Positions 16,821 to 44,468 of a DNA stretch of 64,000 nt are shown here, one piece after another. The notes beneath the pieces are model-generated. The model did not search any database. It was not told the origin of the DNA and worked only from the letters and a program-made list of their open reading frames with translations. This DNA is from Planctomycetota bacterium (GTDB lineage: Bacteria; Planctomycetota; B15-G4), in contig JBBQUR010000002.1 in assembly GCA_038212275.1 (NCBI GenBank), positions 64,001-128,000 of the forward strand, read 5' to 3'. The position numbers and the translations under genes are program-made. How positions within the stretch are numbered: position 1 is the first letter of the stretch; the number at the start of each line of letters is the position of its first letter.

Positions 16821-17465
16821 ATGAAGCCCTCATCCAAGCACCTGCTGAGCCGTACCGCACTCGCCTTGCTCACACTGTTGGGCGGCGCACCTTCGGCCTC
16901 GCTGTCCGCGATGGCTGGCGTGTCCGAACGGCCCGGCCGCCCGGCGCAGCTCGGCAACGACGGCGTCGGCGGCATCGAGAAGACCGGCGGCGTCGGCCCC
17001 GCGGGCAGCGGCCCCGGGGGCAAGGTCGGCCCCGGCGGCACCGGTGGTTTCCTCCCCGGCGGCCCTGTCGGTTCGACCAGCTCGGCCAGCCCCTCGGCCT
17101 GGCACGACCTTGGCGAAGCCCTCGGCACCACGGCCGTGCTCCCCACACTCGAGGGTTCGGGCACCGGCGAGGCGGGGACGCTGGTGGTCCTGTCGCTCTC
17201 CGACGCCAGGCCCGGCGCGGTAGCTGCCCTGGTCATCGGAATCTCCACGCTGAACGCCCCGTTCAAGGGCGGGACGCTGGTTCCCACGCCGATGCTCATC
17301 ATTCCCGGCCTGCCGGTGAACGGCGCGGGGACGCTCGATCTTCCCGCATTGCTCCCCGCGTCGGTGCCGTCGGGCCTCTCGCTCTGCATGCAGATGTGGA
17401 TGACCGACACGTCGGCCGCGAAGGGTTTTGCGGCAAGCAACGCGCTGGAGCTGCTCGTCCCCTGA
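16821..17465 (+). CDS. Small secreted protein: signal peptide + Gly-rich linker + 'PFKGG' C-terminal domain
   Basis: MKPSSKHLLSRTALALLTLLGG; starts 2 nt after the sigma gene stop; domain at 17097-17465. Confidence 0.8.
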   Translation: MKPSSKHLLSRTALALLTLLGGAPSASLSAMAGVSERPGRPAQLGNDGVGGIEKTGGVGPAGSGPGGKVGPGGTGGFLPGGPVGSTSSASPSAWHDLGEALGTTAVLPTLEGSGTGEAGTLVVLSLSDARPGAVAALVIGISTLNAPFKGGTLVPTPMLIIPGLPVNGAGTLDLPALLPASVPSGLSLCMQMWMTDTSAAKGFAASNALELLVP

Positions 17466-17694
17466 GCCCTCCCCTGAGCCCTCCCCGGAGCCCTCCCCTG
17501 ACCGGCCCCTAGACCGAAGCCGGCACCGAGGCCGGCACCGAAGCGGGCAAGCCTGCGCGGCGTCGGGTCAGCTCGGTGGCGTCGGTGCTCGCCCGACACG
17601 GGTGCCGGTCGGTAAGCTCCCTCACGGGCAGTTCGGACGCAGGGCGGTCAGGCGCACGGGAGCGCCCCGGCCGTCGGCGGAAGATGAGCAGGGA

Positions 17695-18516
17695 GTGCGC
17701 TTGGACAAGCCGGCGGACGACACCGACTTCCTCGTGCGCAACATCCGGCGCGTCTGCGGGCAGCCGGATCTCGTGCTGCCCGAGCCCTTCGATCCGCGCG
17801 ACGACCGCCACGTGGATCTCGCGGCCTGCGTGCTGCTGCACCATTTCCGCGAGCACGACAGCGCCGATGCCTTCACCGTGCTGGTGCAGCTCAGCCAGAT
17901 GCGCACGTCCGCCATCGCACGGCGCATCACCCGACAGCTCGGCCTCGCGGTGGATCCCGACGACCTCGTCGCCACTTTCTTCGCCAACCTGTTCGTGGAC
18001 CTGGTCAAGGACCAGCCGCTGGTGCACCGATTCCTCGGCTTCGCCCACACCGCGATGCGGCACGAGGCGCTCAATCAGCTCCGCCAGTTCCGGCGCGCGC
18101 AGGCCCGGCACATCATCTGGGGGCAGCGCTTCCTGGGCGGCTCGGCCGACCCGTCGACCGTCATCGCGGAGCGCGAGGAATGCGAACTGCTCGAGCGCAG
18201 CGGCACGACCTTCCTGCTCGTGGTGAATCAGTGCTTCCACGAGTTGTCCGAGCGTGACCGGCGCGTGCTGCTCGCGCGCGAAGCCGACGGCCTTTCCTAT
18301 GACGACATCGCCGTCCGGCTGGACCTGCCGCGCAACCAGGTCGGCATGATCCTGAAGCGCGCGCGCACGCGCCTGGCAGGGCGCATCGACGACAGCTTCG
18401 CGCGCCTGACCGAGGCGAGGGCCGCCGCTCAGGCGCGCGGTGCGCTCGCCCCGCTCTCGCGCGCCGTGCCCGAGTCGTCGGACGACGCCGAGGCGGAGGA
18501 AGCCGGCGCCCGCTGA
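17695..18516 (+). CDS. ECF-like sigma-70 factor
   Basis: DAFTVLVQ..PDDLVATFF..FLGFAHTAMRHEALNQLR; ELSERDRRVLLAREADGLSYDDIAVRLDLPRNQVGMILKRAR. Start is GTG 17695 or TTG 17701. Confidence 0.8.
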   Translation: MRLDKPADDTDFLVRNIRRVCGQPDLVLPEPFDPRDDRHVDLAACVLLHHFREHDSADAFTVLVQLSQMRTSAIARRITRQLGLAVDPDDLVATFFANLFVDLVKDQPLVHRFLGFAHTAMRHEALNQLRQFRRAQARHIIWGQRFLGGSADPSTVIAEREECELLERSGTTFLLVVNQCFHELSERDRRVLLAREADGLSYDDIAVRLDLPRNQVGMILKRARTRLAGRIDDSFARLTEARAAAQARGALAPLSRAVPESSDDAEAEEAGAR

Positions 18517-42783: not shown

Positions 42784-42799
42784 TGCAATCAGCGTGCCG
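42784..42799 (-). promoter_or_regulatory. Putative sigma54 -24/-12 promoter
   Basis: CGGCAC-GCTGA-TTGCA, about 75 nt upstream of the USP start. Confidence 0.7.
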
Positions 42800-42842
42800 A
42801 TGCGGCACGGCCGACGCCAGTGCGGGCCCCCCGGGGGCAGCG

Positions 42843-44468
42843 TCACGGCACCTTGCTGGTGATCGCGTTCGTCGCGGAGTATCCGTGCGGCGCCGCACGG
42901 TCTTGGACCCAGGCCTGGTAGGTGATCGGGAATCCGGACGGCACGCCACCGGGCCAGAATCCCTGGAGCGCCAGCGCGCCCGAGGCGTCGGTGAGCAGGC
43001 CGAGCAGCACGAGGTCCGGTGCGGGCACGAGCACGCCGCCCTTGAAGGGCAGCTTGATCTGCACGAGCGAGATGCACACGGCCAGGTCGGACTGCGGCTG
43101 CGCATCGTCGATCTGCAGCGAGAAGCCCGAGCCCGTGGCGAGCGCGCCGGAACCGACGAGGTCGGGCGCCCCGAGCGCGCCGGCAAAGGCGCTGCCGACC
43201 CAGGTCCACGCCGCCGGCTGCGTCTTCACGACGCAGGTCGCGCCCTGCACGGCGAACGAACCCACCTTGTTGTTCGGCGCGCCCACGAGCATGAGCGCTC
43301 CGTCCAGGCCCAGCGTGGCGCCGAACTGTCCGGCGGGGCCGATCTCGGCCGGCGCGGCGAGCTGCTCGCCGGCCCAGGAGCCATTGCCGAATCGGAAGAG
43401 CCACGCCGAGCCGACATCGATGCCTGACGTGCCGACATCGTCCCTGGGCGCTCCCACGACGATCACGTTGCCGTCGACCTCGACGCTCGTTCCGAAAGCG
43501 TCGCCCGGAAGGCCGTCCCCGGCGAGCAGCGTCTGCTCCTGGACGAAGCTCGTGCCGTGGTCGCGATAGACCCAGGCGGTGCCGCGGCCGAGGTTGCCGA
43601 ACGGCCCGGCATCCGGTGCGCCCGCGACGATGACCGGCCCATCGACGGCGACCGAGGTCCCGAACGAATCCAGCGACATGCCGCCGGAAGGCAGCAGCTT
43701 CTGGCGCTCCACCCACGCACCCGCCACGCGGCGGAACACGTAGACCGCGCCGTTGTCGGTCGCGCCGTTGCTGTCTTCTTCCGGCGCGCCGACGACGATC
43801 ACGTCGCCATCGATGTCCACGCTTGCGCCGAAGCGGTCCCCCGCGAGGCCGTCCGACGCGAAGAGCTGCTGCTCCAGCACGAAGGAGCTGCCGTCGAAGC
43901 GATACACGTAGACCTCTCCCTGCTGGCTCTTCAGCGCGACGTCCTTGGCCGCGACGCCGACCACGATGCGGTCCTGCGTCAGGGCGAAGCGCCCGCCGAA
44001 GACGTCGAAGGAGGCGGCGTCCACCGCCGTCAGGGTCTGGCGCCACGTCCACACGCCGTCGATGCGGCGGTAGATCGCGATCGCGCCCGCGGAGTTCTTG
44101 AGGAGCAGCTTGCGGCCCGGCACGCCGACGACGCACAGGTCGCCACGCAGGCCGACCTGGCTGCCGTAGGCATCGAGCGACACGGGATCCACCAGCGTGA
44201 GCTTCTGCTCGGACTCCCAGGAGCTGCCATCCCAGCGACGGACGTAAGCTGCACCGCCGTCCGCAGCGAGGCCGATGTTCGCGCCGCTGGCGCCGATGAT
44301 CGCGGCATCGCCGTCGAGGCTCACGCTCTGCCCGAACTTGTCGCCGCCCGCTCCGTCGCTCGCCGTCAGCGTGTCCGTGGCCTGGGCCCGGACCGCCGGT
44401 GCGCCGAAAAGCAGCACCGCAGCCAGGGATGCGCCCAGCATGGGCACGAAGGAACCGGCTGAAAGCAT
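42843..44468 (-). CDS. Secreted FG-GAP (integrin-alpha-like) repeat protein + 'PFKGG' C-terminal domain
   Basis: Repeated L.ASDG..GD.FG.SV..DGD.IVVGA..GAVYVF; domain at 42843-43211. Confidence 0.9.
   Translation of the reverse strand: MLSAGSFVPMLGASLAAVLLFGAPAVRAQATDTLTASDGAGGDKFGQSVSLDGDAAIIGASGANIGLAADGGAAYVRRWDGSSWESEQKLTLVDPVSLDAYGSQVGLRGDLCVVGVPGRKLLLKNSAGAIAIYRRIDGVWTWRQTLTAVDAASFDVFGGRFALTQDRIVVGVAAKDVALKSQQGEVYVYRFDGSSFVLEQQLFASDGLAGDRFGASVDIDGDVIVVGAPEEDSNGATDNGAVYVFRRVAGAWVERQKLLPSGGMSLDSFGTSVAVDGPVIVAGAPDAGPFGNLGRGTAWVYRDHGTSFVQEQTLLAGDGLPGDAFGTSVEVDGNVIVVGAPRDDVGTSGIDVGSAWLFRFGNGSWAGEQLAAPAEIGPAGQFGATLGLDGALMLVGAPNNKVGSFAVQGATCVVKTQPAAWTWVGSAFAGALGAPDLVGSGALATGSGFSLQIDDAQPQSDLAVCISLVQIKLPFKGGVLVPAPDLVLLGLLTDASGALALQGFWPGGVPSGFPITYQAWVQDRAAPHGYSATNAITSKVP

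Follow-up and report, generated by a model that had tools for sequence, protein, structure and literature searches.

A recurrent 122-residue C-terminal domain on putatively exported proteins of Planctomycetota, a candidate envelope sorting or anchoring tag

The described systems that stand closest to the element examined here mark varied proteins with a shared terminal module. Dockerin/cohesin pairs, SLH domains and pre-peptidase C-terminal (PPC) domains fix or guide varied extracellular proteins through one partner or step; dockerin is a helical, calcium-binding domain, and the SLH fold is helical as well. The C-terminal domains of the type IX secretion system (T9SS) are immunoglobulin (Ig)-like, the same broad fold class as the element described below, and span ~70–100 residues. 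To our knowledge, Planctomycetota are not known to have a T9SS, and the delivery and retention of surface and extracellular proteins in this phylum are poorly understood. Here we consider a stretch of 64,000 nucleotides from a Planctomycetota genome (assembly GCA_038212275.1, contig JBBQUR010000002.1, here C2, positions 64001–128000; called the window below), in which four genes end in copies of one ~122-residue domain, which we call the PFKGG domain, or tail, after its most recognizable motif. The assembly measures 4.65 Mb at 70% G+C in 40 contigs and is rated 91% complete. We lean toward the view that the PFKGG domain is an undescribed envelope sorting or anchoring tag with a shared partner. 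We infer this role from five features, namely single terminal placement, a conserved terminal residue, independence of the cargo, a many-or-none distribution across genomes and occupation of a slot that elsewhere holds PEP-CTERM; the same five features fit a spacer or substrate-binding Ig domain poorly.

A first-pass annotation of the window had placed the four domains at 17097–17465, 23111–23476, 34860–35228 and 42843–43211, and all four are found there, in ranges that take in the stop codon. The first and third lie on the forward strand; the second and fourth yield nonsense when translated on that strand and the domain when translated on the reverse strand. The recurrence is real: the copies can be aligned over 122 columns, the only gap being one residue long, and share 25 invariant columns, among them PFKGG.LVP, Gln99, Asp104 and the final Pro, and the other three are 48, 43 and 38% identical to the first. 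Chance is excluded, because a profile built from these four copies matches 125 places in the same genome. Gene starts were read by eye as the first Met preceding a hydrophobic segment, no gene finder being used, and open reading frames (ORFs) were taken from stop to stop. Read in this way, all four proteins begin with an N-terminal hydrophobic, signal-like segment, as the first-pass annotation had held. Gene 1 (16821–17465, forward, its start read inside the ORF 16548–17465) consists of such an N-terminus (MKPSSKHLL...), a Gly-rich low-complexity stretch and then the tail (17097–17462, stop codon 17463–17465), and matches no Pfam or NCBIfam family. Gene 2 (23111–24637, reverse; N-terminus MFFTRSLQSF...) joins an FG-GAP_3 beta-propeller (Pfam, 6.3e-45) to a tail at 23114–23476 that scores 2.4e-50 with the four-copy profile in the genome search. 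Gene 3 (34218–35228, forward; N-terminus MSFDIALRS...AALAQ) has a cargo of ~200 residues, which matches no Pfam or NCBIfam family above threshold, and a tail at 34860–35225 (7.2e-56 in the same search). Gene 4 (42843–44468, reverse; N-terminus MLSAGSFVPMLGASLAAVLLFGAPAVRAQA) joins an FG-GAP_2 propeller (3.4e-69) to a tail at 42846–43211 (7.2e-57). Genes 2 and 4 belong to paralogue clusters of 31 and 20 members, of which 19 and 14, respectively, bear the tail. The idea that the window shows four different cargos is thus only partly right: FG-GAP_3 and FG-GAP_2 are different Pfam families, and the gene 3 cargo belongs to none, but both families are FG-GAP-type propellers, and gene 1 has almost no cargo at all. 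A fifth tail gene enters the window with its N-terminal part (1–1664, reverse; Pfam Lamin-tail domain (LTD) on 4–1664). Its full ORF, C2:62863–65664, encodes an LTD and an Exo_endo_phos nuclease, and its divergent tail lies just upstream of the window at C2:62881–63156; this tail is a weak match to the four-copy profile (E 0.003) and is retained by the iterated profile described next.

The position of the domain across the genome is highly regular. We used four profiles, built from the four window copies, from 31 copies (A2), by four rounds of iteration, and from a broader set that includes divergent copies (A3). Among the 117 ORFs matched by the four-copy profile, 114 end within 5 residues of the stop; for A2 the corresponding figure is 122 of 127 stop-to-stop ORFs; and with the iterated profile 137 ORFs yield 137 domains, of which 132 lie within 8 residues of the stop. 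There is therefore one copy per ORF, never a tandem pair, and the copies are not randomly positioned. Tails on unrelated cargo are as alike (median identity 41%, maximum 67%) as tails on related cargo (median 40%), which indicates that the tail is a module under its own constraint. These regularities bear on a different explanation, which we consider fairly unlikely, that the tail is a passive binding module, carbohydrate-binding or adhesion-like, that sticks its cargo to an external substrate or to the cell's own exopolysaccharide or matrix and needs no dedicated machinery. Ig domains that bind or act as spacers are usually found in tandem and in various places along a protein, in contrast to a tail that is single throughout and nearly always terminal. 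The occasional N-terminal or internal copy, described below, would be normal for a binding module, and the existence of proteins made of little more than a signal peptide and a tail also speaks for one.

At the level of sequence, the domain is compact and well conserved. Its length, which had been called nearly fixed, is indeed 118–125 residues (median 122) in the 83 strongest copies of the genome, of which 69 end in Pro and 52 carry the exact PFKGG string. Over 137 copies, the most conserved residues are Gln99 (137), Gly78 (134), Pro87 (128), Asp104 (123), Gly59 (123), Asn115 (110) and Lys57 (105), and Trp is common at columns 2, 86 and 101. AlphaFold2, given the 31-copy alignment A2, predicts a nine-strand beta-sandwich with a predicted local distance difference test score (pLDDT) of 89.7 and a predicted template-modelling score (pTM) of 0.80, whose sole weak block, residues 51–60 with a pLDDT of 59, is the PFKGG loop. 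The all-beta model agrees with the earlier statement that there is no transmembrane helix; the highest Kyte–Doolittle mean over a 19-residue window is 1.98, 16 of the 83 copies reach 1.6, and such windows fall on predicted strands. A wide structure search with VIA-align gave a top Z of 8.7, to macroglobulin-type and Ig domains, in an arrangement rated common. Foldseek found nothing in the PDB at E ≤ 1e-3, its best rows being ester-bond adhesin repeat domains (E 2.8e-3, TM score 0.41). Sequence searches agree with the view that this is no characterized family. No Pfam family was matched by the 31 tails at E ≤ 10, save for two chance single matches; no Pfam or NCBIfam family covers the tail in two tails and four full window proteins at E ≤ 1; the tail profile matches no PDB chain sequence at E ≤ 10; and the ESM Atlas returned only unnamed Planctomycetota clusters. 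The tail is thus predicted to be a generic Ig-like fold with an unnamed sequence family. The parts of the full-text literature on planctomycete sorting and secretion that were available to us hold no description of a ~122-residue tail domain of this kind, and the letter string PFKGG was met in 5 papers, all of them unrelated.

Such a fold is compatible with passive binding, because the nearest structures are macroglobulin, Ig and adhesin repeat domains, and the Trp residues at columns 2, 86 and 101 could form a sugar-binding face. Against this, a conserved terminal Pro together with a many-or-none distribution is typical of tags linked to a system. The resemblance to adhesins also raises the matter of internal cross-links. 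An isopeptide bond couples Lys with Asn or Asp, and an ester bond couples Thr with Gln and involves a His/Asp motif. A Lys57–Asn115 isopeptide was rejected on the grounds that the two residues are uncoupled (23 copies have Asn without Lys and 18 Lys without Asn). As to an ester bond of the kind found in adhesin Ig domains, the Gln at position 99 is invariant, but the His/Asp motif is not seen and the structural match is weak. A prediction of a complex of two tails scored 0.01 against a mark of 0.42 in one run, which is evidence neither way on self-association.

The conserved end of the domain suggests one further explanation, that the tail is a transient helper, either a pro-domain or folding aid at the C terminus that is cut off once the protein is exported, or a Pro cap against carboxypeptidases. 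A C-terminal Pro resists many carboxypeptidases, and the PPC domain is a precedent for removal after export. Such a role would suit a domain that directly abuts its cargo across short junctions of small residues, and the window also holds two genes for M14 carboxypeptidases, a mere coincidence of place. We nevertheless hold this explanation to be highly improbable: the junction shows neither a linker nor any conserved motif, cleavage motif included; a domain 122 residues long, in which one Gln is invariant and a loop is conserved, far exceeds the needs of a cap; and the tail is found on non-enzymes such as propellers and also in N-terminal position.

The proteins that bear the tail are typical envelope or extracellular proteins. 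In a Pfam census of the 137 genomic ORFs, 34 are FG-GAP propellers, 50 belong to other families and 53 have no family. The other families include beta-helix, DUF642/CBM_4_9, DUF7948/SBBP, Sortilin/BNR, CHRD, Laminin_B, TSP_C, Kelch, NHL/SGL, PD40, WD40, GSDH and ice-binding-like domains, an MtrC-like multihaem cytochrome, CCP_MauG and PMT_2. Among the enzymes are two sulfatases, three M10, one M12B and one S8 peptidase, two nucleases of the LTD plus Exo_endo_phos type, a phosphoesterase, a phytase-like protein and an alpha/beta hydrolase, and LPMO_10 joins the list in public relatives. No housekeeping cytoplasmic enzyme family was found by Pfam among the 137. A cargo of ~100 unrelated kinds, non-enzymes among them, is a further difficulty for a module that merely binds a substrate. 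Export was assessed by a proxy, a 10-residue window of mean hydropathy ≥ 2.0, on 198 public tail proteins that have a Met start and are no shorter than 250 residues: such a window lies within the first 45 residues in 176 of them and, as a control, within residues 101–145 in 7. Other measures were tried on the genome itself and set aside. Our own strict signal heuristic, applied at the estimated start, accepted 65 of 127 tail ORFs against 240 of 1168 others and missed many signals that are obvious by eye. A lenient version accepted 114 of 127 tail ORFs with any upstream start and is too crude on stop-to-stop ORFs; confined to the first 150 codons in both sets, it accepted 97 of 127 against 313 of 600 controls.

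One fusion is informative about where the tail might act. A PMT_2 (GT-C type glycosyltransferase) protein with ~10 hydrophobic segments, encoded at C20:72769–75141 (locus L199:4303–6672, forward), ends in a (Gly-Ala)n linker followed by a strong terminal copy of the tail. In a search of 41 genomes of the class, 2 have this protein; the second, which belongs to another genus (G010), has the same fusion (L213:838–3309, reverse), with 44% identity and a tail that scores 109.5 bits; the loop Lys is replaced by Arg (APFRGG) in both orthologues. A PMT_2 protein with ~10 transmembrane segments cannot leave the inner membrane, and its tail must therefore act from the periplasm. This brings in the possibility that the tail is a docking module on the periplasmic side, which attaches to peptidoglycan, to a scaffold in the periplasm or to the outer membrane on its inner face, and so retains its cargo without exporting it. 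The conserved fusion to a polytopic membrane protein through a flexible linker speaks for such docking, as do cargo families that are typically periplasmic, namely the di-haem cytochrome c peroxidases (CCP_MauG), soluble pyrroloquinoline quinone (PQQ) dehydrogenases and sulfatases, and the fact that no outer-membrane machinery was found. Yet much of the cargo points to the surface or the medium, including choice-of-anchor and HAF-repeat proteins, the MtrC-like outer-surface cytochrome, the LTD nucleases, the M10, M12B and S8 peptidases, the ice-binding-like domain and, in public relatives, LPMO_10. We therefore judge a purely periplasmic docking role to be decidedly unlikely.

The choice-of-anchor proteins deserve particular attention. 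According to a preprint (bioRxiv 10.1101/2023.03.06.531300), they are exposed at the surface, where a tail of the LPXTG, PEP-CTERM or T9SS kind anchors them. In an NCBIfam scan of 108 public tail proteins, matches were found to choice-of-anchor L (232 bits), the NxxGxxAF repeat, choice-of-anchor Q, HAF repeats (two proteins) and DNRLRE (one); choice-of-anchor K reached 29.0 bits, 1 bit under its cutoff of 30. In the source genome, the sole choice-of-anchor L match and both HAF matches fall in tail-bearing ORFs. HAF-repeat proteins, which carry the tail here, often carry PEP-CTERM elsewhere. The comparison is most direct for choice-of-anchor L: the tail follows this cargo in the source genome, and in genome G135 (83% complete, with no tail match) the same cargo ends in a TIGR02595 PEP-CTERM signal (25.8 bits against a cutoff of 16). 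The tail thus occupies the slot of a known sorting signal, and such replacement on one cargo family counts against passive binding. Choice-of-anchor L plus tail was also considered as a conserved core component and rejected, since the cargo occurs in 8 of 151 sampled genomes and in none of 4 other genomes of the same family.

The ends of the choice-of-anchor L proteins are themselves diverse. In a set of 120 (P0255 from the source genome and 119 of its best 120 public relatives, P0374 being left out), in which the cargo is 47–89% identical to the source-genome protein, 19 end in PFKGG tails, 22 in a type that we call T2, 16 in T2b, 26 in T3, 8 in T4 and 29 in something else, the four types being defined by tail motifs chosen after viewing the sequences. 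BLASTP with a PFKGG tail detects no tail of the other kinds, although T2 cargo is up to 78% identical. In hhalign comparisons, the PFKGG profile matches T2 (P 0.004) and T3 (P 0.007) end to end but weakly, and T2b and T4 not at all. The T3, T2 and T2b profiles, however, match sequences that a PFKGG-derived profile also matches, and the tails therefore seem to be deeply diverged members of one superfamily. On such transitive profile matches, the PFKGG and other tail types appear to form a single superfamily, the case being weakest for T2b and T4. As a separate observation, T2, T2b, T3 and T4 (P0255–P0373) measure ~120–150 residues and have no Pfam or NCBIfam name, and T3-like tails occur on 16 ORFs of the source genome.

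Beyond the source genome, the A2 profile was run against 1.84 billion public cluster representatives, of which it matches 7,165 at E ≤ 1e-3 and 1,086 at E ≤ 1e-30. Among the best 150 of the 7,165, all 150 have the tail ending within 7 residues of the protein end. These proteins are named "hypothetical" or after their cargo, and the best public genome loci come from Planctomycetota or "uncultured Phycisphaerales" metagenome-assembled genomes, with a few short contigs binned under other phyla. In the GTDB class of the source organism all 42 genomes are positive, mostly with 50 to over 105 matches each (per-genome counts here are lower bounds, to be read as at least). The 41 relatives among them, all positive, include two families with about 50 to over 108 scored matches per genome and one family (f5) with 1–6 divergent copies; being kin, these genomes do not count as independent samples. 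Of 151 Planctomycetota genomes sampled evenly across the phylum, 26 match A2. With A3 the number rises to 28, the majority of which show 10 to 29 or more scored matches, and the other 123 genomes have none. The distribution is many-or-none. Divergent copies in other lineages are likewise terminal. The first-pass annotation had called the domain lineage-specific. This description needs qualification: the PFKGG form is one subfamily, the one that has expanded most, within a wider, deeply diverged superfamily of C-terminal tails that spans several Planctomycetota lineages.

How does the tail compare with the known systems? With the T9SS C-terminal domains it shares a folded all-beta, Ig-like structure without a transmembrane helix, placement as a single copy at the extreme C terminus of Sec-signal proteins whose cargo is diverse, a number of carriers per genome that runs from tens to more than 100, and a many-or-none distribution across genomes. 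It differs in having no sequence match to PF18962, TIGR04183 or TIGR04131 and in being longer, at 118–125 residues. Separately, a 605-residue ORF of the window (25027–26841, reverse), which has coding-like composition and no family, contains an internal, sub-threshold match to the T9SS Por_Secre_tail family at residues 257–296 (24.1 bits against a cutoff of 27). With the PEP-CTERM/exosortase system the tail shares the slot on choice-of-anchor L cargo. The PEP-CTERM signal, however, is a motif of ~25 residues with a transmembrane helix and a basic tail, whereas the PFKGG domain is a 122-residue soluble beta-sandwich, mostly Pro-ended; TIGR02595 matches no tail-bearing protein in the search that does match the G135 homologue, and the source genome has no exosortase match. 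From the LPXTG/sortase system it differs in that the tails end in (T/V)P and lack a transmembrane helix, and in that the genome has no sortase match. From dockerin, SLH and PPC domains it differs in that the 31 tails have no Pfam match to them and the tail model is all-beta; nor did a repeated receptor scaffold come to light, although no search was aimed at one. The earlier judgment that the domain carries none of the T9SS, PEP-CTERM, dockerin or SLH motifs is therefore borne out by the Pfam and NCBIfam scans. A possible parallel comes from the same Planctomycetes–Verrucomicrobia–Chlamydiae (PVC) superphylum. In a report on the surface-located Akkermansia muciniphila sulfatase Amuc0953, the last domain is described as T9SS-like, which leads its authors to propose that "a comparable system may exist" (PMC13524802). 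Sulfatases are also among the cargo here, but that report concerns a single protein, in contrast to a genome-wide family of tails. The tail profile has no PDB chain match at E ≤ 10 and hence shows no sequence link to any deposited chain, although no check was made that the Amuc0953 chain contains its last domain.

Several observations weigh against our reading. First, no machinery was identified in the genome, 91% complete as it is. Exosortase (PF09721) and sortase (PF04203) have 0 matches each, with control matches in 1 and 3, respectively, of 14 genomes; SprA_N (PF14349) and Peptidase_C25 (PF01364) also gave nothing, and the control genomes too were without a match. Nor is there a convincing enrichment of any family beside tail genes (best p 0.012, uncorrected, over 40 clusters), and no gene family recurs across 79 tail loci of other genomes; these 79 loci hold 106 tail ORFs, and tandem gene arrays are therefore common. 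The lack of machinery or a conserved neighbour speaks for passive binding. Second, four real copies are not C-terminal (5 of the 137 copies are non-terminal, one of them a 90-residue fragment). In one, a signal peptide and tail precede a metallo-beta-lactamase fold; in another, a thrombospondin-C-like domain and tail are followed by 171 residues; and two divergent copies lie directly after the signal peptide of adjoining giant proteins of 1,301 and 1,771 residues with Kelch, TIG, GSDH and Malectin domains (C4:144058–155149, locus L130). Third, cargo-less proteins that consist of signal peptide and tail (window gene 1, P0134 and P0054) would be odd for a pure address label. Fourth, some cargo, CCP_MauG and the soluble PQQ dehydrogenases, is typically periplasmic, and the conserved PMT_2 fusion misfits a pure outer-membrane export signal. 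Finally, the structural matches are generic only (Z 8.7 for macroglobulin/Ig domains, nothing from Foldseek at its threshold), and the proxies used for gene starts and signal peptides are crude.

Taken together, the PMT_2 fusion, the periplasm-type cargo, the non-terminal copies and the cargo-less proteins indicate that the partner is reachable from the periplasm and that a pure "export signal" reading is too narrow. The tail is most likely a shared address or anchor label. The proposal of a sorting or anchoring module with which the first-pass annotation began thus has circumstantial support, in the form of a recurrent C-terminal module on signal-peptide proteins, but its role is deduced and no machinery has come to light. 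A sorting or anchoring tag could work in three steps. First, the N-terminal signal peptide would carry the protein across the inner membrane, as the hydrophobic N-termini suggest. Second, the folded tail would be recognized, possibly through the PFKGG(T/V)LVP loop, the WPxGxPxG motif, the Gln99...Asp104 strand and the (S/T)N-x-L...Pro-COOH end. Third, one shared envelope partner would pass the cargo to the surface or hold it there. The tail would then be a self-folding Ig-like sandwich, one per protein, on well over 100 proteins that each genome exports through Sec, in an uncultured planctomycete lineage of class rank. In functional terms it would take the place that PEP-CTERM, LPXTG or a T9SS C-terminal domain has in other bacteria.

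A stronger form of the argument, which we advance only tentatively, is that the tail marks its cargo for a Planctomycetota export or attachment pathway that is a counterpart to T9SS or to PEP-CTERM/exosortase, neither of which would explain these proteins. Were there such a pathway, the diverged, lineage-specific tail subfamilies on conserved cargo might reflect co-evolution with lineage-specific receptors, and a recognition site, or even a site of covalent attachment, might be formed by the invariant Gln99/Asp104 strand together with the exposed PFKGG loop, whose Lys is nearly invariant. Two further observations come from other genomes. In genome G019, a relative, two Peptidase_C25 proteins (gingipain/PorU family; L115:1492–3363, reverse, and L120:1–1872, forward) end in a divergent tail; PorU carries a T9SS C-terminal domain. 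A C25 peptidase, at first sight a possible sortase, was rejected as general tail machinery, because BLASTP with the two G019 proteins finds no homologue in the source genome. Exosortase is present in 18 of the 41 class genomes, and its strong matches fall for the most part in families where tail copies are fewer, a loose trend among non-independent genomes.

If there is a dedicated pathway, a major environmental phylum would have a protein sorting system that is new, and the tail would be a portable display tag for these organisms. More generally, one recognizable tag covers ~130 proteins per genome and ~7,000 public protein clusters, and no database names it. With a model for the tail, thousands of proteins now called "hypothetical" could be assigned at once to the envelope or the extracellular space, and the exported proteome of a whole uncultured class would be defined. 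The profile would also serve a search for the partner by phylogenetic profiling, the approach behind the discovery of exosortase and rhombosortase.

Several other features of the window were noted. Three paralogous sigma-70 region 4 ORFs (14431–18516, forward), from a cluster of 7 paralogues in the genome, flank and overlap gene 1. Two adjoining large ORFs at 8252–12591 (reverse) contain Peptidase_M14 (zinc carboxypeptidase) domains. A protein of 1,717 residues at 28803–33953 (reverse), from a cluster of 41 paralogues, combines a protein kinase with TPR, GAF, sigma-54 interaction and HTH_8 domains. Finally, at 54524–56142 (reverse), a HipA-like kinase gene (HipA_C, Couple_hipA) lies beside a small HTH_31 gene, in an arrangement that resembles a HipBA-type toxin–antitoxin pair.

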